A program made the position numbers and the translations under genes. The notes beneath the pieces were generated by a model. That model ran no database searches, was not told the DNA's origin, and worked only from the letters and a program-made list of their open reading frames with translations. Of a DNA stretch of 64,000 nucleotides, positions 5,212-40,225 are shown one piece after another. This DNA is from a virus (Duplodnaviria > Caudoviricetes), in the IMG/VR virus record IMGVR_UViG_3300031555_004309, positions 33,440 through 97,439 of that record, one strand, 5' to 3'. Within the stretch, counting starts at the first letter, position 1; the number at the start of each line of letters is the position of its first letter.

Positions 5212-5683
5212 ATATCTCATAGATGAAGACTTCATAAATTACAAAAAACCTTCAATGTTTTTAGGTTTTCCTCATTGTAGTTTAAAATGTGATAAAGAGA
5301 ATGGCAAACCAGTTTGTCAAAATTCTCATCTTGTTAAAGCACCCATAATCGAAATCCATACTGAAGAAATCGTAGATAGATATCTTAGTAATAGAATTAC
5401 TTCTGCAATAGTCTGCGGCGGCATGGAGCCTTTTGACTCTTGGGAAGAACTTAAACATTTAGTCGAAACCTTCAGAATTTGGACAAATGATGATATTGTT
5501 ATTTATACTGGATATGTGGAAGATGAGATTAAGAATGAGATTGAATTTTTGAGTGATTTTAAGAATATTTATGTAAAATTTGGGAGATTTAAAATTAATG
5601 ATGAAAAGAGATATGATGAATTATTGGGAGTAACTCTTGCCTCTTCTAATCAATATGCGAAAAAAATTTCTCGACAGCAATAA
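5201..5683 (+). CDS. nrdG: NrdD activase (radical SAM)
   Basis: Follows nrdD; CSLKC-x8-C cluster motif, GGMEP, YTGY, KFGRF, SSNQ. Confidence 0.9.
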   Translation: MKLKYLIDEDFINYKKPSMFLGFPHCSLKCDKENGKPVCQNSHLVKAPIIEIHTEEIVDRYLSNRITSAIVCGGMEPFDSWEELKHLVETFRIWTNDDIVIYTGYVEDEIKNEIEFLSDFKNIYVKFGRFKINDEKRYDELLGVTLASSNQYAKKISRQQ

Positions 5684-5735
5684 ATAATTAAAAACTTTCA
5701 CCTCTTTATCACATATATCGGGAGAAAAATAGGAG

Positions 5736-6944
5736 GTGAAAACAATGAGAAAAAATATTATTTCAGCAATTTTAAGTATAATTTTAGCATTTGTTTTTTC
5801 TATCGGTGTATTTGCTGCTACTCCCGCCGCAAAAACAGAAGGGTTCTGGTATCATAAAAACTCTTCTTTTTCTTCGGAAGGAAGCAATGGTAGTGGTGGA
5901 GATTATTATACAAATATGATGATGAATCACACTAAAATGTATTTCGTTCAGACAAAAGATAATGAAATCTTTGAGGTCTCAAATACTCTTTATTTAAACA
6001 AAAGTAATGGTATTAATTATCTTTGGATAAATAGTGTTACAACAAATACTAATGGTACTTGGTCAATTACCACGGGTGCACCTGATAATACAAGCAAGGC
6101 AACTAATGTAAATGCACCTAATAATGTAGGTATAGGAAGTAATGTAGTTGGGTATACTTATACCTCTACTTTTACTGGTAATGGCGCAGAAACAAAAAAT
6201 ATTAACTGGGATATTGATTATAAAGCTGGCGCAATTTCTTGGATAGCATCAAATCATAAAACTTCTTCAGATAATGAGGCGCCCGCAATCGAAATAGTTG
6301 TCTCAGATATGAGAGAATTATTAAATAGAATGGGCGAAGTAGAAATGCTATTAGCAAATGGCGACCTTGAAGAAGAACAATGGGATGTACTTAATGCAAA
6401 TCTTCAAACCATTTTAAACAACTGTGAACTTGATGGTTCTGTATACTATCCTCAAAATACCATTGACCAATTAGTAGCATCTTTAGAAGTTCCAGAATTA
6501 ACAAAAATAGTTCCAAAGAATTATTCTTTTGCATTAGATAGAGATGAATTCCTATTCACAGGTCTTGACGCAGATAATAATTCTGTCGGTGCGATTAAGG
6601 CGCAACTTAAAAATGATAGCACTCAAATTATCATTTTAAGAAATGGCATTGAATTAACTGATGAAGAATTAGTTGGTACAAATTGCGTAATTAGATTAGT
6701 ATCTAAGGCGGACCCGTCAATAATTTATGAAGAGTTTACCTTCATTCTTTATGGAGATGTAGATGGTGATGGCATTATCAATGAAACAGATTATGAGAAT
6801 ACTTTTAATGTTTCATTAGGTTTTGGAACTTTAGAAGGTTTATTTGCTGTTGCAGCAGATACAAACAGAGATACAGTAATTGACGGTTTTGACTGCGCGC
6901 AGATCGACTTACAATCAAATGGAATGAGAAATATCGTTCAATAA
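5736..6944 (+). CDS. Secreted protein with C-terminal type-I dockerin-like domain
   Basis: Signal peptide (MRKNIISAILSIILAFVFSIGVFAA); duplicated Ca-binding loops GDVDGDGIINETD and ADTNRDTVIDGFD. Confidence 0.8.
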   Translation: MKTMRKNIISAILSIILAFVFSIGVFAATPAAKTEGFWYHKNSSFSSEGSNGSGGDYYTNMMMNHTKMYFVQTKDNEIFEVSNTLYLNKSNGINYLWINSVTTNTNGTWSITTGAPDNTSKATNVNAPNNVGIGSNVVGYTYTSTFTGNGAETKNINWDIDYKAGAISWIASNHKTSSDNEAPAIEIVVSDMRELLNRMGEVEMLLANGDLEEEQWDVLNANLQTILNNCELDGSVYYPQNTIDQLVASLEVPELTKIVPKNYSFALDRDEFLFTGLDADNNSVGAIKAQLKNDSTQIIILRNGIELTDEELVGTNCVIRLVSKADPSIIYEEFTFILYGDVDGDGIINETDYENTFNVSLGFGTLEGLFAVAADTNRDTVIDGFDCAQIDLQSNGMRNIVQ

Positions 6945-13813: not shown

Positions 13814-14800
13814 ATGATTGACCTTCTAAACTTAGAGCCTACTAGAATTAGTAGGAATTTAAGAGGTAAGTATATGTTGTTTTACGGCTTACCAAAAGTC
13901 GGTAAAACAACTTTACTATCCAAATTCCCTAAATCTCTTATTCTTGAATTTGAAACAGGTACAAATGCTCTTAATAATGCTTATGTGCAACCTATTCAAA
14001 AGTGGACAGATGCAAAAGCGGTCTTAAGAGACCTTCGTAAAGATGACGTTAAAGAAAAATTTTACACAGTTTGTGTAGATACTGCAGATGTAGCATGGTC
14101 GCTTTGTGAAAAATATATATGTCAGCAAAATCAAGTTCAAAACTTGGGAGACATTCCTTGGGGCAAAGGATATGCACTTTGTAAACAAGAATATGAAGAT
14201 TTCTTCCGTGAAATAGCGATGCTAGGTTATGGTGTTATCTTTACTTCTCATAGTGCAGAAAAAAATATGAAGGACGAAAAGGGAAATGATTACATTTCTC
14301 TTGCGCCCGCCCTACCACAAAGACCATATGATATAGTTAATAAAATGGTGGATATTATTGGTTATATCCGTAGCATTAAAAACTATGATACAGGTGAGCA
14401 GAAAACTTTCTTATTTTTACGTGGAGACGATAGATTTGTAGCTGGTTCAAGATTTAAATATATTGAACCCCGTATTGAATTTAGTTATGAAGCACTTTCA
14501 AATGCGATTTATAATGCAGTTGACCAACAAGTCCAAGCAGATGGAACTGGTGCAGCGAGTGAAGAATATAATTCATTTTATAATACTTCAGAAGGACGTA
14601 CTTTTGAACAAATTAAAGATGAAGCAATTCAACTTTGGGACGATTTAGTTGTAAAACCTCAAAGTGAAGAAATGGCACAGAAAATTTCTTTCATTATAGA
14701 AAAGATTTTCGGTAAGAAAATGAAGCTTAGTGAGATAACTGAATCTCAAAAAGATTTGTTTGAGTTAGTTGTTTCTGAAATGAGGGAATTACAGAAATAA
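13814..14800 (+). CDS. Sak4/AAA_24-family ATPase (YorG-like recombinase)
   Basis: YGLPKVGKTT Walker A, VCVDT Walker B, FTSH, AGSRF. Confidence 0.8.
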   Translation: MIDLLNLEPTRISRNLRGKYMLFYGLPKVGKTTLLSKFPKSLILEFETGTNALNNAYVQPIQKWTDAKAVLRDLRKDDVKEKFYTVCVDTADVAWSLCEKYICQQNQVQNLGDIPWGKGYALCKQEYEDFFREIAMLGYGVIFTSHSAEKNMKDEKGNDYISLAPALPQRPYDIVNKMVDIIGYIRSIKNYDTGEQKTFLFLRGDDRFVAGSRFKYIEPRIEFSYEALSNAIYNAVDQQVQADGTGAASEEYNSFYNTSEGRTFEQIKDEAIQLWDDLVVKPQSEEMAQKISFIIEKIFGKKMKLSEITESQKDLFELVVSEMRELQK

Positions 14801-14809
14801 AAAGAAAAT

Positions 14810-14836
14810 AAGGAGAGAATGTAATATTCTCTCCTT
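14810..14836 (+). terminator. Hairpin, probable terminator
   Basis: AAGGAGAGAAT/ATTCTCTCCTT stem. Confidence 0.6.
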
Positions 14837-14858
14837 GTTCTTCTATAGGAGTGATTAA

Positions 14859-16055
14859 ATGTATCTTGTAGATACAAATGTATTATTAGAATATCCATCA
14901 GTTTTAAGAACTTATCAAGGTGAAATTAAAGTTACTTTATCAGTTGTAAAAGAATTAGATGAATTAAAGCGTAGTTTAAATGCGGAGACGGCATACAATG
15001 CGCGCCGAGCCATACATAAATTAAAGAGAGACGAAACAGTTAATTACTATCCGGAGGTAATTAAAAAAATAGTTGACGATGATTTGTTGGCGGTGGCGCA
15101 GAAAGTAGGAGATATTTTAATAACTAATGATTTAAATATTCACATTAAAGGAAAAGCATTAGGAGTAGAGTGTATTTTTTATGATAAAGTCGAAACTAAT
15201 TATACTGGTGTAAGATATTTAGAAGTTGAATGTGATGAGAATATTTATAATGAAGAATTAGAGGTTATTTTACAAGGAAGAGAGCCTCTCGAAGGAATGA
15301 AGGAAAATGAGTTTTTAATTATTACCGATAAGAACAGTGGAGATTTTATGTCTACTATGAAAGTTAAAAATGGAAAACTTGAATTAATAAAAGAAACTCA
15401 GATAAAAAACAGATTTATAAATACTATCTTTCCTCGTAATCAAGAGCAATCGTGCCTGTTTGATTTATTATGGGATAAAGATATTAGTATTATTCTTGCT
15501 ACTGGAGAATTTGGAACAGGTAAAAGTTTTATTTTAACTAATTTTGCATTTCATCAGTTAGATAAAGGATATATTAATAAAATAGTATATGTTCCCAATA
15601 ATTCTATCGTTGATAATTCAAGAGAATTAGGTATTTTGCCAGGTGACACAGTAGATAAAGAATTAATATATATGGGTCCTCTTCTCGACCTTATTGGTGT
15701 AGAATATTCGAGAGAATTCATTCGTCAGGGCAAGGTAGAAGTCGTACCTCTTTCAGTAATGAGAGGTCGTAGCTTTGAAAATTCTATTGTCATTGTCAAT
15801 GAAGCCCAAAATTTAACTACCGAGCATGTGAAATTGCTTGTCGCTAGGTGTGGCGAGGGTACACGAATTTTCTTTGATGGAGATATAAAACAGACAGATA
15901 ATCTTATTTTTAAAAATAAGAATGGACTAAAACTTCTTCTTCACCTTGCCGACAGTGAAGAATTTGCACCAATTTTTGGTACAGTTAGATTAAATTCTAT
16001 TGAAAGAAGTAAAACCGCACAGGCGAGTGCATACTTAGATAATCTCTTAATTTGA
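14859..16055 (+). CDS. phoH: PIN-PhoH ATPase
   Basis: N-terminal PIN (VDTNVLL, ITND); GEFGTGKS, LGILPG, MRGRSF, NEAQN, GDIKQ. Confidence 0.9.
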   Translation: MYLVDTNVLLEYPSVLRTYQGEIKVTLSVVKELDELKRSLNAETAYNARRAIHKLKRDETVNYYPEVIKKIVDDDLLAVAQKVGDILITNDLNIHIKGKALGVECIFYDKVETNYTGVRYLEVECDENIYNEELEVILQGREPLEGMKENEFLIITDKNSGDFMSTMKVKNGKLELIKETQIKNRFINTIFPRNQEQSCLFDLLWDKDISIILATGEFGTGKSFILTNFAFHQLDKGYINKIVYVPNNSIVDNSRELGILPGDTVDKELIYMGPLLDLIGVEYSREFIRQGKVEVVPLSVMRGRSFENSIVIVNEAQNLTTEHVKLLVARCGEGTRIFFDGDIKQTDNLIFKNKNGLKLLLHLADSEEFAPIFGTVRLNSIERSKTAQASAYLDNLLI

Positions 16056-28137: not shown

Positions 28138-28344
28138 TTGGTAATGACAGGGCCAGAGATTAAACGCGAAATTGAAAGAATCAACGAGTTAAATAAGAGC
28201 CTTATCACTCCCGACATTTGGACATTGAATCCAGATATTGCGAAGAATTTAGTAGAAATAGCCAAGTTGCGCGCCCAGTGTCCTCATGAATTTGAGAACG
28301 GAGAATGTAAATGGTGCTATTTAAAGGAGGAGAAAAATGATTAA
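28138..28344 (+). CDS. Small Zn-ribbon protein
   Basis: CPH...CKWC; GGAGG RBS. Confidence 0.65.
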   Translation: MVMTGPEIKREIERINELNKSLITPDIWTLNPDIAKNLVEIAKLRAQCPHEFENGECKWCYLKEEKND

Positions 28345-29002
28345 AGAAACAGAACAAGAATCAAAATGGACACTTGATACAGATATTAAAGCTCTCCTTC
28401 AAGCGTATCTTAATCAATCCTCAATTAAAGATTTTGAAAGTTTATCTGAATATGTTGATATTGTAAATAGGAATATCTATATTAGTGATATAGAAGAAGT
28501 AACTGGCGCCGGTGTCGACGCATTTATTCGTTTTTATAATATCGTTGATAAGCAACTCAATATCCCCGTAGAAGATAGAATTCCTATTAAAATCTTTATT
28601 AATTCAAGCGGCGGAGATCTTACTGCAACCTTTACAGTAATAGATGCAATACATATGAGTAAGACGCCAGTTTACACTATTAATCAAGGGCGCGCTTACT
28701 CAGGTGGCTACTTCATTTATATCTGCGGTCATAAAAGGTATAGTTTTTCCTCTGCTAATTTCCTTTTCCACGAAGGTTCTACTGTAATGAGTGGCGATGC
28801 ACATAAGTTCGAAAGTGCCGCGGACTATTACAAGAAAAAGAGAGAAAAATTAAGACAAATAGTGCTTGACCATACTAAAATATCTCCTGAACTCTATGAT
28901 GAAAAGAAAAAAGACGATTGGTGGTTCGATACAGAAGAAGCCGAAAGACTCGGAATGGTAGAAGTTATCGTTACACCTGAGAATTACGATGAAATTTTAT
29001 GA
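28337..29002 (+). CDS. clpP: ClpP-like serine protease
   Basis: IKIFINSSGGD, AYSGG (catalytic Ser), FLFHE (His), DWWFDTEEAERLGMV. Confidence 0.85.
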   Translation: MIKETEQESKWTLDTDIKALLQAYLNQSSIKDFESLSEYVDIVNRNIYISDIEEVTGAGVDAFIRFYNIVDKQLNIPVEDRIPIKIFINSSGGDLTATFTVIDAIHMSKTPVYTINQGRAYSGGYFIYICGHKRYSFSSANFLFHEGSTVMSGDAHKFESAADYYKKKREKLRQIVLDHTKISPELYDEKKKDDWWFDTEEAERLGMVEVIVTPENYDEIL

Positions 29003-29960
29003 GTTTTTGATATATTTACTTCTATTAGTTTGCGGCGGCGTCATAGGATTTTTCTTACGACGTCGCGCAAACATAGAGATAGATGAACAGTCTCAAGCAC
29101 AAAATAAAAGATTGAATGAAGAAAACTTAAAATTGGACCGACTTATTGCAGAAAAGAAATGTACTTTTGCTTCTGAAATTCAACAACTTCAAGAATCTCA
29201 AAATGAAAAGAAGAAAGAGTTACTTGCTTCACTGAAAGAAGAAGAAGATTCTAAACGCAAAGAAATTTCTGAAAAAATTCATTTAGAATTACAATTAGAA
29301 CGTGAAAAATTGAAACAAAAAATCGCTGAAATTAGCCAAAATGAATTTAGTCAATTGTCTATTCAGCTTGAAGAAAATCGTTTGAATTTTGAAGCAAAAA
29401 CTGCGGAGTGGAACTCTGAATTAGAAACTCTTTCTAAAGAAATAGAGGAATTAAGGAATAAGAAGCGCGCACTTATTGAGGCGGCTAAGCATGAGGAAGA
29501 AATTGCACAGCAAAAAGATTTTTATCGCTTACAAGTAGAAGATGATGTGATAGAAGATGTGATAGAGTTGAAAAAATTACAAAATAGACTTCATAATCCT
29601 GACGTACTTAATAAACTCATTTATAAGACCTATTTTGAAAAACCATACACCTCTCTTATAGGAAGGGTTGTAGGTGCAGATAAGGTTACTGGTATTTATA
29701 AAATTACCAATATAAATGACCAACGAGTTTATATAGGTCAAGCAGTAGATATCGCGGCTCGTTGGAAACAGCATATTAAGCGCGCTCTCGGCGCAGAACC
29801 TATCACCCAAAATAAACTTTATCCTGCTATGGAGAAGGAAGGAGTTTGGAATTTTACTTTTGAAATAGTGGAAAAGTGTAAAAAGGAAGAATTAGGAGAA
29901 AGAGAACAATATTATCAAGAGTTCTTTGGTGCAAAGGAATATGGATATAGTATTAAATAA
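28989..29960 (+). CDS. Membrane-anchored coiled-coil GIY-YIG nuclease
   Basis: N-terminal TM helix, long coiled coil, GIYKIT...VYIGQA...RWKQH. Confidence 0.8.
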   Translation: MKFYEFLIYLLLLVCGGVIGFFLRRRANIEIDEQSQAQNKRLNEENLKLDRLIAEKKCTFASEIQQLQESQNEKKKELLASLKEEEDSKRKEISEKIHLELQLEREKLKQKIAEISQNEFSQLSIQLEENRLNFEAKTAEWNSELETLSKEIEELRNKKRALIEAAKHEEEIAQQKDFYRLQVEDDVIEDVIELKKLQNRLHNPDVLNKLIYKTYFEKPYTSLIGRVVGADKVTGIYKITNINDQRVYIGQAVDIAARWKQHIKRALGAEPITQNKLYPAMEKEGVWNFTFEIVEKCKKEELGEREQYYQEFFGAKEYGYSIK

Positions 29961-30159
29961 AAGGCTTATTGGTAGAACAGAAAAAATGTTATGGTATGCA
30001 AAGTATACTAATGGTATTATTATAAGCAAAAACCCTTCTCTTTTAGAGGAAAAGGCAAAATCTTTAGGTATTACAGGATTAAAGATTGTAAGTTGTGATA
30101 AAAATGCACAAGGAAGATTTTGTTCCAATGTAAATTTTGACTTTTCTAAGTCATTGTGA
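29926..30159 (+). CDS. Possible small hypothetical protein (start may be 29986)
   Basis: Fills the gap on the coding strand; weak RBS. Confidence 0.35.
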   Translation: MVQRNMDIVLNKRLIGRTEKMLWYAKYTNGIIISKNPSLLEEKAKSLGITGLKIVSCDKNAQGRFCSNVNFDFSKSL

Positions 30160-30165
30160 TATAAT
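30137..30165 (+). promoter_or_regulatory. SigA promoter
   Basis: TTGACT-17-TATAAT with TG extension. Confidence 0.85.
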
Positions 30166-30188
30166 ATGAGATAAAGGAGGCGAGAAGA

Positions 30189-30401
30189 ATGATTCTTTTA
30201 AAACGAACAGAAGAGTTTAGAGTAGAGTCCGATGTTGAGGCTCGTAAGGCCATTGATGATGTCCGTGCAGATGCAAATGAGAAAGGTTATCAAATTGCTT
30301 CAGCAGGCTACACTCATAAAGAGAAAAAGGCAAAAGGCGAAGTTATTGATGCTTGTGAAATTCTCAAAATCGTAAAAGTATTTGGAGGGATTTGGGAATG
30401 A
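30189..30401 (+). CDS. Hypothetical phage protein
   Basis: AGGAGG RBS directly after the promoter. Confidence 0.75.
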   Translation: MILLKRTEEFRVESDVEARKAIDDVRADANEKGYQIASAGYTHKEKKAKGEVIDACEILKIVKVFGGIWE

Positions 30402-31093
30402 ATGCAAGGATAATTGAAGGTCAAGAACAACCTACTAATGATAATAAGTTACTTGAAAACATTATCAATTTAATGGGTAAGATTGAACAAGGCGCGCCGG
30501 GGTTTGATGAAAAGGAGTTTGAAGAATTAAAGTCCCAAATGTTGGCTTCAGGTATGAGTGTTGAAGATTTGTTTAATCTTTTAGGAGATAATTTTGTAGA
30601 GGCAGTTGCTAATCGTACTATTGTCGATATGCCAATTCAATTACTCACTCCTACTGCAAAAATTCCTGAATATGCCCACCTTTCTGATGCTTGCGCAGAT
30701 ATTTATGCCGATGAAGATTATGACTTAATGCCCGGTGAGACTCACGCAGTTTCCACAGGTATAGCACTTGCAATTCCTGAAGGATATGTATGTCACATTT
30801 ATGCAAGAAGTGGACTGAGTTTAAAGACGGGTTTAAGAATTGCAAATTGTGTAGGTATTATAGATGCAGGATATAGAGGTGAAATAAAAGTACCTCTTTG
30901 GAATAGTGGTTCAGAGACCTATAAAATTGAAAAAGGTATGAGAATTGCACAAATTGAAATCCAACAATCTCCTGCCATAGAGTTTTATCCCGTAGATAAT
31001 GTAAAAGAATATGGGAAAGACCGTAATGGAGGATTCGGCTCAACAGGTTTAGAAAAACTTGCCGAAAATCTCGAAATAAATGGCAAAGTATAA
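30392..31093 (+). CDS. dut: Trimeric dUTPase with N-terminal extension
   Basis: ACADI, ARSGL, GIIDAGYRGE, RIAQ, RNGGFGSTG motifs. Confidence 0.93.
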   Translation: MGMNARIIEGQEQPTNDNKLLENIINLMGKIEQGAPGFDEKEFEELKSQMLASGMSVEDLFNLLGDNFVEAVANRTIVDMPIQLLTPTAKIPEYAHLSDACADIYADEDYDLMPGETHAVSTGIALAIPEGYVCHIYARSGLSLKTGLRIANCVGIIDAGYRGEIKVPLWNSGSETYKIEKGMRIAQIEIQQSPAIEFYPVDNVKEYGKDRNGGFGSTGLEKLAENLEINGKV

Positions 31094-31820
31094 TATTGAA
31101 GGATTAAAGAAAGAGTACCAAGATAACGGTTGGGAACTGCGCGCAGATAAGTATGAAAACTTATCAACTTTAATGGAATGTGTGTGTCCTGAAGGTCATA
31201 CTTGTCATATGACTTATGATAAGTGGAGAAAGAGTAAAGAATGTCCGCAGTGTGCTGCAGCCGCATTAAAAAAGACAAAAGAGAATGAAGTTATCCCTAA
31301 AAGTCGTGGTATCAAGAGAACTCTTGCATTAGACCAAGCTACCAATGTTACTGGTTGGGCGGTTTTTGATAATGAGAAGTTAGTTTCTTACGGAGTTTTT
31401 AAGAATAAAGAGGATAAGACTGAAATCAAAATCAATAACCTCAAGCATTGGTTTTCTGATATGTGCGCGGCCTGGAAAGTAGATCGATTAATCTTTGAAG
31501 ACATTCAATTACAAAATTTTGAAGGTGGACCAATGAACACAATTGGAGTTACCACTTTCCAAATTTTAGCTCAACTTCAAGGAGTATTGATAGACGTAGC
31601 GGTAGAAGAAAAACTTCCTTTTAAACTCGCGCATACAGGAGTCTGGAGAAAGTATAACGATATAAAAGGAAAAAGTCGAGCAGATAAAAAGAAAAGTGCT
31701 CAACTTTTAGTTAAAAATACATATAGTAGAGAAGTTTCTCAAGATGAGGCTGACGCAATCTGTATAGGAAGATATGGTCTTACTCTTTTTAAAGAACTAA
31801 CTTTCTCAAATTGGGAATAA
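31080..31820 (+). CDS. ruvC: RuvC-like Holliday junction resolvase with N-terminal Zn finger
   Basis: ALDQAT..TGWA, IFEDI, DEADAI; N-terminal CPEGH...CPQC. Confidence 0.8.
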   Translation: MAKYNIEGLKKEYQDNGWELRADKYENLSTLMECVCPEGHTCHMTYDKWRKSKECPQCAAAALKKTKENEVIPKSRGIKRTLALDQATNVTGWAVFDNEKLVSYGVFKNKEDKTEIKINNLKHWFSDMCAAWKVDRLIFEDIQLQNFEGGPMNTIGVTTFQILAQLQGVLIDVAVEEKLPFKLAHTGVWRKYNDIKGKSRADKKKSAQLLVKNTYSREVSQDEADAICIGRYGLTLFKELTFSNWE

Positions 31821-31853
31821 AAAAAAGAGGGCTTTTGCCCTCTTTCTTTTTTT
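31821..31853. terminator. Bidirectional terminator between converging arms
   Basis: A-tract, GAGGGC-TTTT-GCCCTC, T-tract. Confidence 0.85.
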
Positions 31854-32222
31854 TTATATTCGATAAGCACTCCATACAAATCTATCTTGTGGATTAAAAG
31901 TATCGTATATGCACCCATTAATCGCGCAAGTAATATGCCCGCTCATAGTTATCAAATAAGTTCCTTGTGGATGAGTATCTACGAACTCTCCTACCGTAAC
32001 CCTTATTTCACCTTTACAGCCGCAGATTTTTTCATATCGTGTTGACAAATATTGTTCGATATAAATTACATCGTCGGGCATAACTGCTTGTTCTTGCGCC
32101 ACTCGCGTCAACTGTTCATAGGTTTCATCCCAAGTGCGCCCAGTAGCAAGAGATATTGCTCGAACAGTGCAATCATTCACATTACGCTTTAATGGATTTG
32201 CATTATAATACTTAAATCTCAT
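31854..32222 (-). CDS. Putative papain-fold/C39-like Cys peptidase
   Basis: NDC18TVRAI helix, GH96ITC strand and YD107T suggest a Cys-His-Asp triad. Confidence 0.55.
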   Translation of the reverse strand: MRFKYYNANPLKRNVNDCTVRAISLATGRTWDETYEQLTRVAQEQAVMPDDVIYIEQYLSTRYEKICGCKGEIRVTVGEFVDTHPQGTYLITMSGHITCAINGCIYDTFNPQDRFVWSAYRI

Positions 32223-32698
32223 TAGATTTGTGCAATTTTTTGAGCGTGCTTACGAACAACTTCTTTTTCCTCTGGAGTTTCAGCATTATCCATAATGGTC
32301 TCAACAAGAGTGCAAATAGCATACATTGTCTTTTCAAGACCTTCTGTCATACTACCAGAGTGGTCGCCATCATAATATCTATCTTTTCCATAAACATACG
32401 CATCTAAACCGTCTTCAATACGATAAACTTTATCATACATACGGTCATAATCACGATGTCCATAGCGACCTGAGTTGCGGCCAGAATCTCTACCATAGCG
32501 TTCATCATAAGTGCCATAGCGTCCACCGCGTCTTGCTTCGTAACGGTCGTACATTTGCTCATCCTCCATCGCTTCAATTGTTAAAATATTCTTCATAATA
32601 GAAGTTAGCATTTTCGCATTACTTACGTTGTTTGAGCTAAGTCCACTTTCTTCTATCTTATGAAGTTCTTTTTGCGCATTACTATATAACTTATCCAT
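32222..32698 (-). CDS. Hypothetical protein, helical ends with Y/R/G/D low-complexity core
   Basis: ORF composition; translationally coupled on both sides. Confidence 0.8.
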   Translation of the reverse strand: MDKLYSNAQKELHKIEESGLSSNNVSNAKMLTSIMKNILTIEAMEDEQMYDRYEARRGGRYGTYDERYGRDSGRNSGRYGHRDYDRMYDKVYRIEDGLDAYVYGKDRYYDGDHSGSMTEGLEKTMYAICTLVETIMDNAETPEEKEVVRKHAQKIAQI

Positions 32699-33104
32699 TA
32701 GTACCTCCTGTTACTGTCGCCGGAGCTTCTACAGGAAGCGAGGGCAAATTATTTACGCATTGAGAACAAGGAAGTCTTGTCATAAGAACAAAACTACCAC
32801 TAGTTGCGCCAGTTCTAACTATTGTAGAATAGCGTGTTCTCGTATTGATTGAACATGCATTAACAGGTGTAAGATTACAATTAACGAGTGGGTATGTTGT
32901 GCCAGTGTCGCCGCCAATCGTAATTGCAACTGTTGCATTAATTGTTGTTTCTGCAGGTATAGTCTGAGCTACTACAATACAATATTTCTCATTATCAAAA
33001 TAAGTACCTGCGGGAATGTCGATCAGAAGAGTGTCATCAGCAAAGGTAACACTATCTGAGAGTATTAATCTGTTACAGAGTCTTCTGCAAGGAGAACAAC
33101 TCAT
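32691..33104 (-). CDS. Hypothetical Cys-flanked beta-rich protein
   Basis: 8 Cys (CSPCRRLC...CSQC), Thr-rich beta pattern, GAGG RBS. Confidence 0.8.
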   Translation of the reverse strand: MSCSPCRRLCNRLILSDSVTFADDTLLIDIPAGTYFDNEKYCIVVAQTIPAETTINATVAITIGGDTGTTYPLVNCNLTPVNACSINTRTRYSTIVRTGATSGSFVLMTRLPCSQCVNNLPSLPVEAPATVTGGTNG

Positions 33105-33133
33105 TTAATCACCTCTTTAATAGAATAAAATTG

Positions 33134-33170
33134 GAAGAAAGGAGAGAGAAGGGAAAACTCTCCTTTCTTC
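33134..33170 (-). terminator. Intra-operon hairpin (attenuator or mRNA stabiliser)
   Basis: 13-bp perfect stem GAAGAAAGGAGAG/CTCTCCTTTCTTC. Confidence 0.65.
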
Positions 33171-33179
33171 ACCTACCAA

Positions 33180-33911
33180 TTAGTTATTGCAGCCGCAACC
33201 ATTTCCGCAACCGTATCCAAAGCCATTTGCATAGCTATAAGGATTGAGTGCAGTATAAGGACTTGCAGTTAAATATGCAGGTTTAGCGATTGGCATTAAC
33301 TGATTGATAATGCTTGTTGTTTGATCCTGTTGTGAAATCTGGAACTGTGCAGACTGAAGTTCAGTACGGAGTCTATCCATTTCCTGATTTGTGAGATAGT
33401 TGATAATACGATCTGTGTTTTTGTCAGATGCAGTAAGAATTGCATTAAGGTTATTTGCCATCAAGTATTTGATGTCATCCTGACCTCTTTCAATTTCGCA
33501 GCAGCACATATCCATTTGATGAGATACGTTATTTATGCCGAGAAGTGTTGCATAGTCAGAATTTGCAATTGCCTGTTTTACAGAATCGAAGCCCTGACAA
33601 ATTTGAAGTTGGTTCTGACCATTTGCAGTAAGGAAAGAAACATTTTGACTGTTAAAACCGTTACTGATTGCGGCCTGAATACCAGCTAAATCGCCTTGAA
33701 TTGAGTTGAAATTAAATGCGTCTGTTACACCTTGCGCAGTTGCAGGTGCGAAGCCTCCGCCATAATTGCCGCCGAAAGCGCCATTACCGCCCCAGCCAGC
33801 AAATAAAAGGACAAGAAGGATAACCCACCAAGAGCCGCCGTCTCCTCCCCAACCATTGCCATCACGGCTACCTAATGCAAGAGCATCAGCTACAGAAAGA
33901 CCTTCGTTCAT
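33180..33911 (-). CDS. Hypothetical membrane protein: Gly-rich TM segment, coiled coil with CCC, Cys/Gly tail
   Basis: WWVILLVLLFAGW flanked by Gly-rich runs; MDMCCCEI; GCGNGCGCNN end; GGAGG RBS. Confidence 0.85.
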   Translation of the reverse strand: MNEGLSVADALALGSRDGNGWGGDGGSWWVILLVLLFAGWGGNGAFGGNYGGGFAPATAQGVTDAFNFNSIQGDLAGIQAAISNGFNSQNVSFLTANGQNQLQICQGFDSVKQAIANSDYATLLGINNVSHQMDMCCCEIERGQDDIKYLMANNLNAILTASDKNTDRIINYLTNQEMDRLRTELQSAQFQISQQDQTTSIINQLMPIAKPAYLTASPYTALNPYSYANGFGYGCGNGCGCNN

Positions 33912-33940
33912 TTGATTACCTCCATTAAGTTATTTTATAC

Positions 33941-34183
33941 TCAACCTCTTCCAATCATACGCATAAAAGACTCTAGCTCAGTATTAAAGTCTCTTCCCTG
34001 GCTATTGAAATATTGTTGAGCGAATTCTTGAATACCTTGAGTATCACCATTCTTTCCCATTTCGATTAAATGTTGCATTTGAGGATCGTTGGGGAAATTT
34101 TGGGATACGATTTGTTGTGCGATTTGCGCGGGATTACCACTTCTTGCGAGGGAAATTAGTTGAAAGGGATTTAAAGCTGCCAT
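33941..34183 (-). CDS. Hypothetical Gln/Asn-rich helical protein
   Basis: NP repeats, STI1-like pattern, GGAGG RBS. Confidence 0.75.
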   Translation of the reverse strand: MAALNPFQLISLARSGNPAQIAQQIVSQNFPNDPQMQHLIEMGKNGDTQGIQEFAQQYFNSQGRDFNTELESFMRMIGRG

Positions 34184-34617
34184 TTAGATGAACCTCCTGT
34201 TGCAGTAGTTTTTTCTTCTTGTTGCGCCTTGAGTTGCCGCACTTCTTCTTCTAAAGTAGTCAAGTGAGATTTTAATTCTTCATTTTCTTGTTGAAGATCT
34301 GCGGGAGTCTTAGGTTCTACCGCAGTTAAAGAAAATTGTTTGATAAGTGGAACTCCATTTTGAGAAACTTTAATATACATTAAGTTCTCTGGAAGACAAA
34401 GTGCAACTGTCGTCCCCATCCCTACGGGTACATTATTTGCTTCTTGAAGGGTATTTGTAACATAGACTGCGCCCGCAGGGTTTAGGAACGTAGTTGAGGG
34501 ATAGAATGAAGCAGGTTGGGTAACCTGTTGTGGTTGAACTTGTGATTGTTGATACTGTGGGTATGCGCCATATTGCGCGGCCACGGGACTATATGGTTGT
34601 GTGAAATGTGATGCCAT
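34171..34617 (-). CDS. Hypothetical protein: Q/P/Y-rich N-terminus, small beta domain, coiled coil
   Basis: AGGAGG RBS; ORF composition. Confidence 0.8.
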   Translation of the reverse strand: MASHFTQPYSPVAAQYGAYPQYQQSQVQPQQVTQPASFYPSTTFLNPAGAVYVTNTLQEANNVPVGMGTTVALCLPENLMYIKVSQNGVPLIKQFSLTAVEPKTPADLQQENEELKSHLTTLEEEVRQLKAQQEEKTTATGGSSKWQL

Positions 34618-35205: not shown

Positions 35206-35234
35206 ATTATATCAGATTAAGATAAAATTGTCAA
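35206..35234 (-). promoter_or_regulatory. SigA promoter for the 124-aa gene
   Basis: TTGACA-17-TATAAT with TG extension on the - strand. Confidence 0.85.
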
Positions 35235-38200
35235 GAATTTATCAATTTATTCCACACTTCTCTTGCCCACTTCTGACGATTTTCACTAGCAGTCTCAATA
35301 CTGCCAGGATATTCATATACTCTCACAAAAGTATCTGCTACTTTTTGTGCTCCAACCCAAGTATTAGGTGGCATTTTTAAATAACTAAACAGAGTAATTG
35401 TATTTGTAGGATCATGTATTACTCCTTGTTCATTTGTACTTTTTAATCTACTTTGATAAGTCCCAGAAGTTTCACTATAGTTACCTTTCATATCATAAAC
35501 TAAATAGTCACATTGACCTTCAAGATTAGTTCTCCAATCTGGATTATCAGGATAATGGCTTGCGACATAGTTACTCATTCGAGTAAGGTTGCCATAGTGA
35601 TCATTCCACATACACATTCCACCTGCCCAATACCCATCAGAATCTATAACCTTTTGAGAATAATCAAAACTACACTCTCCATAAACATTACCACATATAC
35701 CTACTGCCGCGGAAGTTGTTAATCCTCTAACAGTTAAATAATTAATAATTCTTTGTGCTGTTGCAATTTGAGATTGTGACATTACATTTGTGGCAGGAAG
35801 ATTTTTGTTTACCACTGCAACATAGGTTTCAGGGTCTATATCATCTCTATCATAAGTATATGGGGGCACTCTTATCTCTAAATGGACGTGAGGTCCAGTA
35901 ACATTACCAGATTCTCCTGCATACATAATAACTTGACCTTTTTGAACGCTATCTCCATGCTGCCACTCTTGTCCAGTCGAAGGGTTTGTTGCAATACTTG
36001 ATGCATGACCATATAGACTTCTTATTTGATAATCAGGGTGATTAATTACAACATGGTTTCCATAGCCTGTTGAACTATGGGTTACACTTTCTATTGTTCC
36101 ATCGTGAATTGCAACAACCTGCTTATTTAAAGTTCCTGAACTGCAACAATAATCTATACCAGTATGTCTTCCACCACTAGGATACTTTGGGTAATCTGCC
36201 GATTTATAGATGTCATTGTAATTGTTAAGAGGATTAATAAAAGTACCGTCTCCTCCTCCTGATCCACCAGGAACAACTTCTTGACCATTAACATACAGTT
36301 TTGTAACCCACAAAGTACCTGTACTTCCATCTCCATGAATGGAAGTGTGAGAAATATCTGATAAATTATACTGTCCAAACCAAAAATGATTTTGTTTAAA
36401 ATTCCAGCCAGTTAAAGGGGTTATGTCAAGTTTACCTAAAACAGAATGTGTTGCATAAAAAGGTAATCCTGAAAGATCGGCTACAAATTCTATTGGTTCA
36501 CCATTAGTATTATAATCATGCATTAAAATACCTGTAGTATAATAGCTTAATCTTTGATCTTTAGAATGTAGTCCACTACTTCCAATATCAAAGCCTCCTA
36601 ATTCAGAATAACCATTACTACTAAGTTTAGCAATAGTTTTGAAATCACTATCTCCAGACAATTTTCTTTCTATTAATAAACCATAATCGGATTTTTGTTC
36701 GTTTAAAAACCCTAATGTTAATCGCCCTTGACTTTTTTTAATATTTAGTTTGAAACCATTATCAGTAATACTTACCAAAGCTTTATCTTGAATTTTATTA
36801 ATTGCATCAGTACGGGTTATATCTTTAAACCAAGTGCTTCCTTCTTGATTATAATTAAAATCGCTATCTCCTTCAATAACATATAAACCAAATTGATCAA
36901 ATCTAGTAAAATACTTACTAGTGTCTTTTGTTCCACTAGTAGAATGGCTATGATAGGCTGTTATACCAAGTTCGTTCCAAGCAAATAATTCTTGACCACT
37001 ACCGCCAAAAATCTTAATCAATGAAGTGTCAATCTCGCCTGCAGTAATTAAACTTGCATTAATTCCGTCTCCTGTAATACCAGTACTCCAAACAGGTTCA
37101 CCATTATCACCTGTCTGTTTAGAAATAAAAATACCATCAGCAGTAATTCTTACTCTCTTAGTAGGATTTGGAATAGATTGAAGTTTTAATCCTTCAACAT
37201 CTAACTCATAACTGTTATCATCAGAACTCGTTAAAACAAAATTATTATTAATCAAACTCTTCTGCAAAATAGCACTACTAATCTCTCCATTCGCAGTAAA
37301 TCTATCTGCTTTATCATAAATCTGTTCATTCAACTCTAAAGTCTGAGTTGCCGCAGAAATTCTTTGAAATAAATCTTCAAAACTTGTCAAATAGTTTCTA
37401 ACTTCAATTTGATTTTTTTGAGAATTGTCGAAATAATCGTGATATCCAGTGATTAAAATCTCAAATTTGTAATCTCTGCCTTCTTCAGTAGGACGATAAA
37501 AGAAATCATTATCTACCAAGAAAGTTTTGTCTCCTACTTTAAAGAAGAAGTCTTTTAATTCTTCTGCGCCGCCACCATCAATGACATTTATAGTCCAACT
37601 TGCCTTTGGTATTGCGGAAGTATTTGATACTTTTTGAGAGTCGATATAATAGGTTGAACTATCTGCATATGAACTATCTACCCAAGTTCCTTCTTTTATG
37701 AATTGAGAATATTTAGTTTCAAATTGGGAGATAAGGGTTTTCTTCTGAGTATCAATAGAAGTAACAGATGCAGAAAGATTGTCTAATTTTATTTTTATTT
37801 TATCATTCTGCTTTTGAAGTTTATCTGATTCTTTCTTATACTTACTTTTTTGTTTGCTTTGATTTTTATATGAACTACGAGCATTAACAAGGTCAGGTAA
37901 TGCTTCATCTGCCCCTTCTTTTACTAACCCATCTATTGTTTCTTTTAAACTTGTCATTGTTTCAGTACAAGCAGAAATCTGATATGAATATAATTTTATC
38001 TTATCTTGATTATCTCGATAAGTTTTATAATAAGTATTATATTTATCATAGGTTTCTTTCTCATTCTCATTTAAGACCTTAACTTGGCGATATAATTCTT
38101 CTTTGTCTCTGTCAATTTCAGGTCCGACAAGTTTATGTTCAATATAGTGACGGAAATTATAGTAATATCTCTCTCCCCAAGGATTAAGTGTAGTTTCGGC

Positions 38201-40225
38201 AATAGAAATCTTACCATCTGTAATGTAACTCTTTTCTACATCCTCAACATACATTTTTGTTACAATTTCATCACTTTCAAGTTTTCGAGTTATACTTGAA
38301 AGATTAATACCTTTATGGAAGCCAGCAAAATTATCTCGTAATGCACTTTCTTTATACCAAAATTCTTTGACGAGCGCGCCGTCTTCGTTTCTATGCACTT
38401 CAAATACTGGCCATACCCTAAATAATTCAGCAATTTCTTGAATTATATTAAAGCGATTAGATTTACTAATTACAAGGGTTCTTATTTTATCTACTTGACC
38501 ACTACCAAATCTTGCATAATTCCATTTACCATTTGTGATACCATTTCTTTCTACTTTATAATATTGATAATAGTAATTATCAGTAGAAAGTTGATATATT
38601 TTATTATCCTCTCCAGTTTCAGGTAGTTCAGAAACAAGTTGGATTGGTAAAGGCTTATTCTCTACAATAGAAGTAACTCCATCTACTTTCGCTAATTTAT
38701 ATTCGGCATTATTTATATCATCAAAAGATACGAATTCTAATTCATCATCTATAAAAGGATCTTCGTGAACCTCAACATTTGTAGAAAGTTGAATTTTATA
38801 ATTGTCACGATAAAAATATCTTACCTTTTTATCATAATATGCATCAATATCTTCACCCGCATCAGAAGGAAGTAGCATTTTATTTAGTTGCGCCGCAGTT
38901 GCTGATGCCCCATTCGCAAGTGAGGCTATGAGAGAGACTTGAGATGCTTCATCTTTTCCCTGTGCCTTAAAAAACTCAACACTAATTACATCTGTCGTAC
39001 CAGCAATTTCTGTATAAAGATAAAAATATGGGTTTGAAATATTTGTAGTTGGCTTTATGACATAATAAGTATTGGGTTTAAAATCCATAAGGACTTTATA
39101 TTTAAACCTATCATTCATATCTTTTGCATTTTTATATTGATTATGAATATAAAGACCTTTAAAGATATTTTTATTACCTTTTGTAGTATATCTAAAAATA
39201 TAAGGTTGATAGGCTTGTAAAATTGTTCTATTGTTTGTCATTGTATCATTTAACAGATAAGATGGATTTGAATTAGAATTAGAAATTTGAAGATAATATT
39301 CACCATTATCTTGATAAGGTCCTACCACATATGGAGTACCTGTCGAGAGCGCTTTCCAACCTATTGAATCTGTAAAATCATCACCATTAGAAATAAGATT
39401 CTTCGCAGGTATCGTCTGCGTCATATCCATCATTTCTGCACAATAGAAAGGCTTATAATAACCATCCTTCACTTCTGCAAGAGTTTCCAATTGATACGCA
39501 TATTGAGATATTTCAGGTATGAATTTATAAGTATGAGAAGGAATAGGTGTATAAACTTCATCAAATCTCTGCTGCTCTTCATTCCACTGTACATCAGTAA
39601 GATATTCAATTAAAGTTCCTGTTTTATCTTCTCTATATACCCAATCTGTTCCCGCCGCAACTTGTTTTGAAAAATCGTGAATTGTTCCCAATCCATTTCC
39701 AACTTCAATATCATCAGAAAACTGAATTTCATAACCAGTTTTTGAAAGTTCTTCTACATACGCATCAGTACAAGAATAAGTATAAGAAATAATACCTTTA
39801 TCATCCTTATCTTCTTTATCATTTACAACCATAAAATAAGTATCATAAACAGTTTCTTGTCCTTTTAGAATATCTTTTTTCTTTGCATAAGGCTTATTCT
39901 CCTTACGGTATTCTAAATTTTCTCGTCTGACTTCAATCTTACATTTATTGGTCAAGTATTTAACTAACTCATTATCTACTAGTGCGCCCGCATCTTCATC
40001 AAAATACTTAGCATCAAGACTAAAACTCAAAGTGTGCGTTCCATCTATCTTTGTATAAAATTCCACATCGTGAACTTGCCAAGAATAATTCGCATCGCTT
40101 GAACCAATCTCTAATACTGGTCTGCTTACATATCCACCAACAAATGCAGATTCAGGAAACAAAGAAGTATCTAAAAACTCTTCTGTGAGTAAAATTTGAT
40201 ATTTTCTTTTTTCCACTCCTTTCAC
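35231..40225 (-). CDS. Tail-associated lysin/central fibre with C-terminal M23 peptidase and phage-tail-lysozyme domains
   Basis: Position after Dit; HTGID, LYGH, GPHVHLE (M23); GICGNVYGECSF, FVRVYEYP (tail lysozyme). Confidence 0.85.
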   Translation of the reverse strand: MKGVEKRKYQILLTEEFLDTSLFPESAFVGGYVSRPVLEIGSSDANYSWQVHDVEFYTKIDGTHTLSFSLDAKYFDEDAGALVDNELVKYLTNKCKIEVRRENLEYRKENKPYAKKKDILKGQETVYDTYFMVVNDKEDKDDKGIISYTYSCTDAYVEELSKTGYEIQFSDDIEVGNGLGTIHDFSKQVAAGTDWVYREDKTGTLIEYLTDVQWNEEQQRFDEVYTPIPSHTYKFIPEISQYAYQLETLAEVKDGYYKPFYCAEMMDMTQTIPAKNLISNGDDFTDSIGWKALSTGTPYVVGPYQDNGEYYLQISNSNSNPSYLLNDTMTNNRTILQAYQPYIFRYTTKGNKNIFKGLYIHNQYKNAKDMNDRFKYKVLMDFKPNTYYVIKPTTNISNPYFYLYTEIAGTTDVISVEFFKAQGKDEASQVSLIASLANGASATAAQLNKMLLPSDAGEDIDAYYDKKVRYFYRDNYKIQLSTNVEVHEDPFIDDELEFVSFDDINNAEYKLAKVDGVTSIVENKPLPIQLVSELPETGEDNKIYQLSTDNYYYQYYKVERNGITNGKWNYARFGSGQVDKIRTLVISKSNRFNIIQEIAELFRVWPVFEVHRNEDGALVKEFWYKESALRDNFAGFHKGINLSSITRKLESDEIVTKMYVEDVEKSYITDGKISIAETTLNPWGERYYYNFRHYIEHKLVGPEIDRDKEELYRQVKVLNENEKETYDKYNTYYKTYRDNQDKIKLYSYQISACTETMTSLKETIDGLVKEGADEALPDLVNARSSYKNQSKQKSKYKKESDKLQKQNDKIKIKLDNLSASVTSIDTQKKTLISQFETKYSQFIKEGTWVDSSYADSSTYYIDSQKVSNTSAIPKASWTINVIDGGGAEELKDFFFKVGDKTFLVDNDFFYRPTEEGRDYKFEILITGYHDYFDNSQKNQIEVRNYLTSFEDLFQRISAATQTLELNEQIYDKADRFTANGEISSAILQKSLINNNFVLTSSDDNSYELDVEGLKLQSIPNPTKRVRITADGIFISKQTGDNGEPVWSTGITGDGINASLITAGEIDTSLIKIFGGSGQELFAWNELGITAYHSHSTSGTKDTSKYFTRFDQFGLYVIEGDSDFNYNQEGSTWFKDITRTDAINKIQDKALVSITDNGFKLNIKKSQGRLTLGFLNEQKSDYGLLIERKLSGDSDFKTIAKLSSNGYSELGGFDIGSSGLHSKDQRLSYYTTGILMHDYNTNGEPIEFVADLSGLPFYATHSVLGKLDITPLTGWNFKQNHFWFGQYNLSDISHTSIHGDGSTGTLWVTKLYVNGQEVVPGGSGGGDGTFINPLNNYNDIYKSADYPKYPSGGRHTGIDYCCSSGTLNKQVVAIHDGTIESVTHSSTGYGNHVVINHPDYQIRSLYGHASSIATNPSTGQEWQHGDSVQKGQVIMYAGESGNVTGPHVHLEIRVPPYTYDRDDIDPETYVAVVNKNLPATNVMSQSQIATAQRIINYLTVRGLTTSAAVGICGNVYGECSFDYSQKVIDSDGYWAGGMCMWNDHYGNLTRMSNYVASHYPDNPDWRTNLEGQCDYLVYDMKGNYSETSGTYQSRLKSTNEQGVIHDPTNTITLFSYLKMPPNTWVGAQKVADTFVRVYEYPGSIETASENRQKWAREVWNKLINS

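Follow-up and report, generated by a model that had tools for sequence, protein, structure and literature searches.

A stretch of 64,000 nucleotides (nt) from a gut phage, corresponding to bases 33440-97439 of the 97.4-kb IMG/VR virus record IMGVR_UViG_3300031555_004309 (approximately 78% complete, with a G+C content of approximately 33%) and hereafter called the window, carries a minus-strand cassette of six genes, g1 to g6 (34617-31854). Comparison with related loci identifies this locus as the phage's own copy of a portable accessory module, whose constant core appears to comprise g1-g2-g3-g4 and a fifth protein with an Arg/Gly/Tyr/Asp-rich low-complexity stretch, g6 being an optional add-on. 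Our preferred, although tentative, reading is that the module would encode a late-made, self-assembling rod-and-knob complex held by the hydrophobic head of g3 at the inner face of the cytoplasmic membrane; the parts of such a complex are recognizable in the proteins, and their assembly and cellular place are what we infer.

Organization and distribution of the cassette

An original prediction, made from the DNA letters only, had described six tightly coupled minus-strand genes between terminators. The coordinates of all six open reading frames (ORFs), the overlaps (13 nt between g1 and g2, 8 nt between g4 and g5, and 1 nt between g5 and g6) and both hairpins were confirmed; gaps of 29 nt and 75 nt separate g2 from g3 and g3 from g4, respectively. 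The features are as follows (aa, amino acids; AF2, AlphaFold2).

34787-34762, minus strand: intrinsic terminator (11-bp hairpin and T-run) 3′ of the preceding gene g0, separating g0 from the cassette; terminator scan and sequence reading
34617-34171, minus strand: g1, 148 aa, with a Q/P/Y-rich head, a beta-rich core, and a C-terminal heptad coiled coil
34183-33941, minus strand: g2, 80 aa, a helical, Q/N/M/P-rich conserved core member
33911-33180, minus strand: g3, 243 aa, the putative rod; phrog_16490, alignment, hydrophobicity and charge statistics
33104-32691, minus strand: g4, 137 aa, the putative knob; 838 relatives, phrog_31654 (weak), AF2 model
32698-32222, minus strand: g5, 158 aa, with helical ends around an R/G/Y/D low-complexity stretch; the window type occurs in 14 loci
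32222-31854, minus strand: g6, 122 aa, a predicted minimal papain fold; alignment, AF2 model, VIA-align
31824-31845, both strands: bidirectional terminator (hairpin with T-runs on both strands) common to the cassette and the convergent plus-strand gene at 31080-31820

These ORFs are not chance frames, every one having many homologues. As had been predicted, no SigA-type promoter precedes g1: the promoter scan detected no promoter-like site scoring at least 10/12 between 34760 and 34617, and only an orphan TTGACA without a usable -10 element is present. The cassette is a terminator-bounded unit without a housekeeping promoter.

Using the g4 alignment, at least 576 IMG/VR loci were retrieved and confirmed, and 81 viral loci were kept for iterated profile searches; 50 prophage loci were fetched for comparison. 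Within the viral set, all 81 loci contained g4, 78 contained g3, 69 contained g2, and 59 contained g1; the order g1-g2-g3-g4 never varied, and the prophage loci showed the same order and linkage, which bears out the expectation that these genes recur together in gut phages. A fifth gene encoding 100-285 aa lies 3′ of g4; in most loci its product is a DUF7841 protein, for which a phrog_28802 protein is substituted in the window and its nearest relatives. The g6 gene was found in only 12 of the 81 viral loci and in a few of the prophage loci, preceding g1 in some and following g5 in others, and relatives of it occur on their own in phages of Pseudomonas and Prevotella and in Bacillus Tsamsa-like phages. 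Because of this sparse occurrence, variable position, and independent existence, g6 appears to be a facultative neighbour and not a fixed part of the cassette, and the proposal that it is the module's own obligatory maturase has to be abandoned.

The insertion sites of the cassette are diverse. It follows tail, fibre, or receptor-binding genes in the window (where the preceding structural gene encodes a tail lysin), in Dulem virus 36, and in locus L090; it terminates an Anaerotruncus colihominis prophage (L109), where it follows a GH25 endolysin gene and adjoins the host ruvCAB genes; in a prophage of a Blautia sp. metagenome-assembled genome (L128), it separates the major capsid gene from the connector gene; and in Dulem virus 35 it is inside the head module. 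The preceding genes encode an endolysin, integrase, repressor, or antirepressor in eight of ten sampled loci, and the cassette was co-oriented with the flanking phage genes in all contexts examined. Among 49 distinct loci, the median gap between the preceding ORF and the cassette was 39 nt, and only two had a promoter-like site (at least 10/12 within 200 nt upstream of g1). In view of this short gap and the rarity of promoter-like sites, the cassette would seem to be cargo of late operons rather than a self-promoted moron. In the Blautia prophage, a reverse transcriptase gene (13825-15069) that may belong to a diversity-generating retroelement is located a few kb downstream of the cassette, past tail genes. 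A separate idea, that g3 represents a microvirus DNA-pilot protein, had been raised by g3 matches on records of 4-6 kb and was rejected, as these records are unannotated cassette-bearing fragments without a large capsid ORF.

With regard to hosts, prophage copies are present in gut Clostridia (Oscillospiraceae, Lachnospiraceae, Anaerotruncus, Flintibacter, and Blautia) and in Bacilli, and copies also occur in Clostridium perfringens phages. DNA nearly identical to the cassette of the window was detected in ruminant gut and faecal samples, among them bovine, goat, and sheep metagenomes, and in other faecal metagenomes. The g3 family extends further, to many crAss-like phages, the cultured Bacteroides phage C3_41T2LP, and viruses assigned to Methanomassiliicoccales, and DUF7841 proteins are likewise found in crAss-like phages. 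Because of this distribution, a function tied to spores or to a Gram-positive envelope or wall seems unlikely.

Two further copies differ in their arrangement. In the crAss-like phage cr4_1 (L139, NC_055893), a g3-like gene follows endolysin and holin genes and adjoins a gene for a DUF7841 protein (hhalign probability 99.4%). The order of the genes at 3829-6484 is altered, with DUF7841, the g3-like protein, a Cys-free beta protein, and a g1-like protein in succession. This phage has TAG-recoded genes: the g3-like and g1-like genes contain in-frame stops, and reading TAG as Gln clears the one in the g3-like gene. The Arg/Tyr-rich stretch of its DUF7841 protein is C-terminal, as opposed to N-terminal in others. 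The crAss-like protein at the g4 position lacks Cys, and a comparison of gp17 with g4 reached an hhalign probability of only 26%, by which homology is not established. In Bacteroides phage C3_41T2LP (L140, OR296439, 4725-7970), a g3-like gene follows YqaJ, RecT, and resolvase genes. Five genes past it is a PolyVal metallopeptidase gene, whose product has a fold unrelated to the papain-like g6 and which occupies the place that g6 has elsewhere; the module may thus benefit from a peptidase activity of some kind without requiring it.

Components of the predicted complex

The composition originally noted for the products was recovered throughout: a Q/P/Y-rich head and heptads in g1, Q/N-richness in g2, a Gly-flanked stretch, CCC, and CGNGCGC in g3, a beta-rich g4 with Cys at both ends, an R/G/Y/D stretch in g5, and Cys18, His96, and Asp107 in g6. 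Signal peptides are absent from g1, g2, g4, g5, and g6, as read from their sequences, and searches of the ESM Atlas returned unnamed viral clusters only.

The g3 protein matches phrog_16490 over almost its full length (E 1.5e-27, residues 11-243 on profile positions 17-283 of 286), and the g3 of a relative, L036, does so with an E value of 3.3e-66. Its layout consists of an acidic N-terminal tail, a Gly-flanked Trp/aliphatic hydrophobic core (residues 28-42), a heptad region, a P.PxPAY motif, and a Gly/Tyr/Cys tail, and the length of the rod varies with the number of NGF..V..AI..LGY units. The sole invariant motif in the alignment is CCC (residues 136-138); the tail of the window copy ends in CGNGCGC, and a GCGC tail is frequent in the family. 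Counting only strictly apolar residues, the median length of the hydrophobic core is 11, which rises to 16 if Gly and Tyr are included. In 33 sequences, the N-terminal side of the core contains 39 Lys and Arg vs. 128 Asp and Glu and the C-terminal side 42 vs. 56. Because the former is strongly acidic and the latter nearly neutral, an N-out/C-in topology is favoured if the core inserts in the membrane, which would place the rod on the cytoplasmic side. Such a topology agrees with the lack of signal peptides in the partner proteins. Profile searches against the PDB gave marginal matches to the HR1 region of alphacoronavirus spikes (E 0.002-0.03, the best being 5zuv at 0.002) and to influenza HA2 (E 0.75), which are probably compositional; the labels "spike protein" and "viral fiber" in crAss-like genome records can be traced to marginal matches of this kind. 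A complex prediction with three copies each of g3 residues 120-243 and g4 yielded a score of 0.01 vs. a mark of 0.32, which is evidence neither for nor against their association.

The best-conserved member of the cassette is g4, with a mean column identity of 60% and conservation of 50-70% across the sampled loci, on contigs of approximately 20 to 180 kb. The family forms 336 clusters at 50% identity among 1.84 billion representatives and is always a stand-alone protein; candidate g3-g4 or g4-DUF7841 fusions in that set were rejected, since the few long matches look chimeric or mis-called, with unrelated N-terminal parts joined mid-domain. Six Cys residues are conserved (Cys3, Cys10, Cys42, Cys84, Cys113, and Cys116), and the start of the protein (MSCSPCRRLCNRL), read from the sequence, has neither a signal peptide nor a lipobox. 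While the g4 profile retrieved nothing usable from PDB sequences, the AF2 model (predicted local distance difference test score, pLDDT, 70) is all-beta, and its best PDB match is the tail-fibre tip of phage Pa193 (9b45 chain 2, residues 236-340), with a Z score of 5.1 and a root mean square deviation of 4.7 over 98 residues, the next row scoring 3.4. Past family members, the matches of the model in BFVD are mostly large tail-fibre, collagen-fibre, and receptor-binding proteins (E 2e-5 to 2e-2, TM score 0.4-0.5). A fibre-tip-like knob is thus a plausible but weak assignment for g4. One BFVD entry from a crAss-like virus, A0A8S5LXP6 (294 aa, labelled "DUF7841 domain-containing protein"), gives a structural alignment with the g4 model (E 0.012) and may be a fusion of a knob and a fifth-gene domain.

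The three remaining core proteins are rich in low-complexity segments. The most variable member of the core is g1 (mean column identity 21%), whose small, beta-rich core is built around an invariant Tyr81 and the near-invariant Lys83 and Gly88; its relatives match phrog_21718 (E 4e-09), and its profile produced only coiled-coil noise against the PDB. For g2, Pfam searches returned only sub-cut-off matches (CTLH in the window copy, and HRDC/XPC-binding in a relative). At the fifth position, g5 of the window matches phrog_28802 (E 2.3e-13) and has no Pfam match, hence none to DUF7841 (PF25223), whereas the fifth genes of the relatives L036, L024, and L050 match DUF7841 (E 4.6e-28 in relatives). 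Because the g5 and DUF7841 alignments reach an hhalign probability of just 1.9%, with the low-complexity part alone aligning, the two types of protein are not considered homologous. As judged from these alignments, the conserved property at this position is the Arg/Gly/Tyr/Asp-rich low-complexity stretch and not the fold.

The facultative g6 protein matches phrog_3754 (E 1.4e-26), and its AF2 model is of high quality (pLDDT 88, predicted template modelling score 0.84). Residues Asn7, Asp17, Cys18, Arg21, His96, and Asp107 are invariant in 16 sequences with identities down to 29%. Nearly all of the top 50 matches in VIA-align are Cys enzymes with a papain fold, at individually modest Z scores of 6.4 to 3.6, including PeiR (6.4), YopQ (6.2), a C39-like protein (5.9), PCAT1 (5.8), a staphopain (5.7), ComA (5.5), AvrPphB, and Josephins. 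We are confident that g6 is predicted correctly as a minimal papain-fold (clan CA) Cys protein with an Asn/Cys/His/Asp set, and the peptidase-like character originally proposed from Cys18, His96, and Asp107 has held up well. The suggestion of a C39 fold survives in part: C39 domains are among the best fold matches, although other papain-fold enzymes score equally well or better, and neither g6 nor the 16 family members had a Pfam match at E values up to 1, Peptidase_C39 and C39_2 included, or a match among PDB sequences.

Proposed function and alternative explanations

Considering these components together, the following sequence of events may be proposed. The module would be transcribed late, and because it lacks a promoter of its own, this would require read-through from upstream late genes or a phage factor. 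The heptads of g3 would assemble into an oligomeric rod of approximately 200 residues, with the short Gly-flanked Trp/aliphatic head in the cytoplasmic membrane, the acidic N-terminal tail outside, and the rod inside. In the reducing cytoplasm, the invariant CCC and the Cys-rich tail would make metal or thiol contacts rather than disulfides. The g4 protein, a compact fibre-tip-like beta domain without a signal peptide, would cap or dock on the rod, and g1 (with its Tyr/Gln/Pro-rich head and coiled coil), g2 (Met/Gln-rich helices), and g5 (Arg/Tyr-rich stretch) may serve as assembly partners through their low-complexity segments. Where present, g6 might be a small hydrolase of the papain type, with one component of the complex or a host protein as the substrate to be trimmed or modified. 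The finished complex could exert its effect at the host cell membrane in the late phase of infection, or on membrane debris freed at lysis, and it is unlikely to be lysis machinery or a spore layer.

Placement at the inner membrane face is favoured because of the hydrophobic head, the charge bias, the missing signal peptides, the independence from virion type, and the cargo position. The original prediction of a membrane-anchored Cys-rich assembly is retained to the extent that g3 and g4 resemble components of an assembly; it is doubtful that disulfides cross-link them at the surface, since the partners lack signal peptides, the charge bias places the g3 rod in the cytoplasm, and the crAss-like protein at the g4 position is free of Cys. 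Several points weigh against our preferred reading. The fold match of g4 is weak (Z 5.1, from a model with a pLDDT of 70); the g3 core, which is not flanked by basic residues, falls short of the usual length of a transmembrane helix, so that its insertion and topology are deduced only; the copy in the Bacteroides phage adjoins recombination genes and not late genes; no experimental work or paper on any cassette member was found in the literature; and the fibre-like parts and the place among structural genes suit a virion fibre equally well.

Such an accessory virion fibre is the main rival explanation, although we consider it rather unlikely. Here, g3 would trimerize into the coiled-coil shaft of the fibre, g4 would be the knob at its far end, g1 would be the adaptor to the capsid or tail of each phage, and g2 and g5 would be assembly chaperones; the fibre would decorate virions and bind a constant gut target (mucus, food particles, or common glycans) rather than a host receptor. 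This would account for the resemblance of the g4 model to fibre, collagen-fibre, and receptor-binding terminal domains in BFVD and to the Pa193 tip, for the cassettes that directly follow tail or fibre genes or lie in a head module, and for a probable co-transcription with late genes. The conservation of g4 over diverse loci is what a constant ligand would predict, and all carriers come from animal guts. However, one intact cassette recurs in contigs of 20-180 kb, and the BFVD relatives are labelled sipho-, myo-, podo-, and crAss-like. No recognizable virion-attachment domain was seen in the cassette proteins, a poly-Gly-flanked Trp/aliphatic head would be odd in a soluble fibre, and many temperate phages hold the cassette past the endolysin, beside integrase or repressor genes, which is a cargo position. 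Proteomics or a structure of a carrier phage was not found in the literature.

Clearly less probable is a lysis-associated membrane device, in which g3, as an element similar to class I fusion proteins or i-spanins, would disrupt or remodel the membrane at the end of infection or tune the timing of the holin. Lysis genes are indeed frequent upstream neighbours: an endolysin gene in four of ten sampled loci, the GH25 gene in Anaerotruncus, endolysin and holin genes in cr4_1, and amidase and holin genes approximately 4 kb upstream in the C. perfringens phage XP41-N3. The end of a late operon is also a usual cargo site, however, and in this phage the GH25 endolysin (a 351-aa frame) is encoded at G000:C1:31543-32061, outside the window, approximately 33 kb from the end of the structural operon and not beside the tail genes, which rules the cassette out as the lysis module of this phage; Amidase_2 and Amidase_3 were not found in the whole phage record. 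The adjacent muralytic enzyme and multi-transmembrane holin that characterize a holin/endolysin cassette are missing here, g3 having one short hydrophobic segment and a soluble part of approximately 200 aa. The HR1 and HA2 matches of the g3 profile could be cited in favour of a fusion-like element, but the HR1 matches are at the level expected by chance for low-complexity heptads. Moreover, g4 has no lipoprotein signal and so provides no o-spanin analogue, and most of the sampled carriers are phages or prophages of single-membrane Bacillota.

It is very improbable that g6 is a C39-type double-glycine peptidase that cuts the N-terminus of g3 (LSVADALALG...GG) and frees a membrane-active peptide from a bacteriocin-like precursor. 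Several GG pairs do precede the hydrophobic core of g3, and C39 domains (3erv, 3b79, PCAT1 7s5j, ComA 5xe8, and LahT 6mpz) rank high among the structures matched by g6, at Z 5.9-5.4, but PeiR, YopQ, staphopain, and Josephin score as high or higher, most cassettes with the same g3 N-terminus lack g6, and the small peptidase near the Bacteroides phage copy is the unrelated PolyVal metallopeptidase. Nor is there a linked ABC transporter, as none of the six cassette products or g0 matches an ABC transporter family.

Least probable of all is the original suggestion that g6 matures a layer or appendage akin to a spore coat or exosporium and cross-linked by disulfides: coat and exosporium proteins are Cys-rich, Gly/Tyr-rich, and Q-rich, which the composition of the cassette recalls, many carriers are prophages of spore-forming Clostridia, and the catalytic triad of g6 is intact, but the g3 family reaches well beyond spore formers (crAss-like phages, a Bacteroides uniformis phage, and the viruses assigned to Methanomassiliicoccales, with DUF7841 in crAss-like phages as well), approximately 85% of cassettes lack g6, signal peptides are missing, the crAss-like counterpart of g4 is Cys-free, and spore-coat or exosporium proteins of the BclA/ExsFA or CotY/ExsY type, considered with regard to a C1q/TNF-like knob, are not among the listed fold matches of the g4 model (pLDDT only 70).

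In the widest reading, the module might be a host-independent, self-contained system that was passed between unrelated gut viruses whose hosts are Bacillota, Bacteroidota, and methanogenic archaea and that builds a membrane- or vesicle-anchored rod-and-knob organized by Tyr/Arg-rich and Gln/Pro/Tyr-rich low-complexity proteins. It would then represent a novel type of accessory apparatus in viruses, of use for existence in the gut rather than for infecting one particular host, for example by promoting adhesion or protecting progeny after lysis. We offer this wider proposal as a speculation of limited likelihood.

Phage neighbourhood and comparison with known systems

The window is divided into a plus-strand half with genes for replication and nucleotide metabolism (ClpP-like, GIY-YIG, and dUTPase) and a minus-strand half with structural genes, the last of which encode a Sipho_tail protein and a 1664-aa tail protein. 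The cassette is downstream of the structural genes on the same strand and convergent with the plus-strand genes. The 1664-aa protein (35231-40225, minus strand) has Peptidase_M23 (residues 1353-1453) and Phage_lysozyme2 (residues 1489-1661) domains at its C-terminal end and is a tail-associated lysin with two muralytic domains. Between its gene and the cassette is g0 (35171-34797, minus strand), which encodes an uncharacterized 124-aa protein of phrog_1401; it has a perfect TG-extended TTGACA-17-TATAAT promoter (35234-35206, minus strand) and a strong terminator of its own, and it is linked to the cassette in the closest relatives only (eight loci). On the other side, the plus-strand run converging on the cassette (28337-31820) encodes a protease resembling ClpP, a coiled-coil protein that ends in a GIY-YIG nuclease domain, an N-terminally extended dUTPase, and a Cys-rich protein of 246 aa that has no Pfam match.

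Contigs from sheep-gut metatranscriptomes, 93-97% alike to the window, cover 31942-34309 only, whereas DNA runs cover the flanks too. They were considered as RNA evidence of expression and set aside; because such libraries may contain DNA and the flanks of the relative may differ, these contigs are no proof of transcription or of transcript ends.

With respect to known systems, the families of the cassette are already catalogued, as PHROG 16490 (g3), 21718 (g1 relatives), 31654 (g4, weak), 28802 (g5), and 3754 (g6) and as Pfam DUF7841, and none of them has a known function. The phage tail fibre, as exemplified by Pa193, resembles the putative complex in combining a coiled-coil shaft with a small beta tip. 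However, the match is weak, the shaft and tip of the cassette are separate polypeptides, in place of a virion-attachment domain the shaft has a hydrophobic head flanked by Gly, and the tip is conserved rather than hypervariable. Clan CA enzymes (C39, PeiR, staphopains, and deubiquitinases of the Josephin/UfSP type) share the predicted fold of g6 and the order Asn/Gln-Cys-His-Asp, all four residues being invariant in g6, but at 122 aa the latter is smaller than any of these enzymes and comes with no transporter or recognized substrate. As in class I viral fusion subunits and i-spanins, the N-terminal part of g3 is Gly-rich and hydrophobic and is followed by heptads; unlike them, g3 lacks a signal peptide, a demonstrated second heptad region, a C-terminal anchor, and an o-spanin partner with a lipobox, and the likeness is probably compositional.

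The cassette matches no characterized system, its families being catalogued but uncharacterized. As a conserved mobile module found across host phyla and virion types, it belongs to the commoner unexplained gene content of gut phages, and cultured carriers exist among the C. perfringens phages (CPD1, XP41-N3, and CPQ4) and in the Bacteroides uniformis phage C3_41T2LP. Its parts are unusual for phages: a hydrophobic-headed putative rod with an invariant CCC, a highly conserved putative knob, peptidases of two unrelated folds as options, and a fifth position at which a non-homologous gene can take over provided that the Arg/Tyr-rich stretch is kept.

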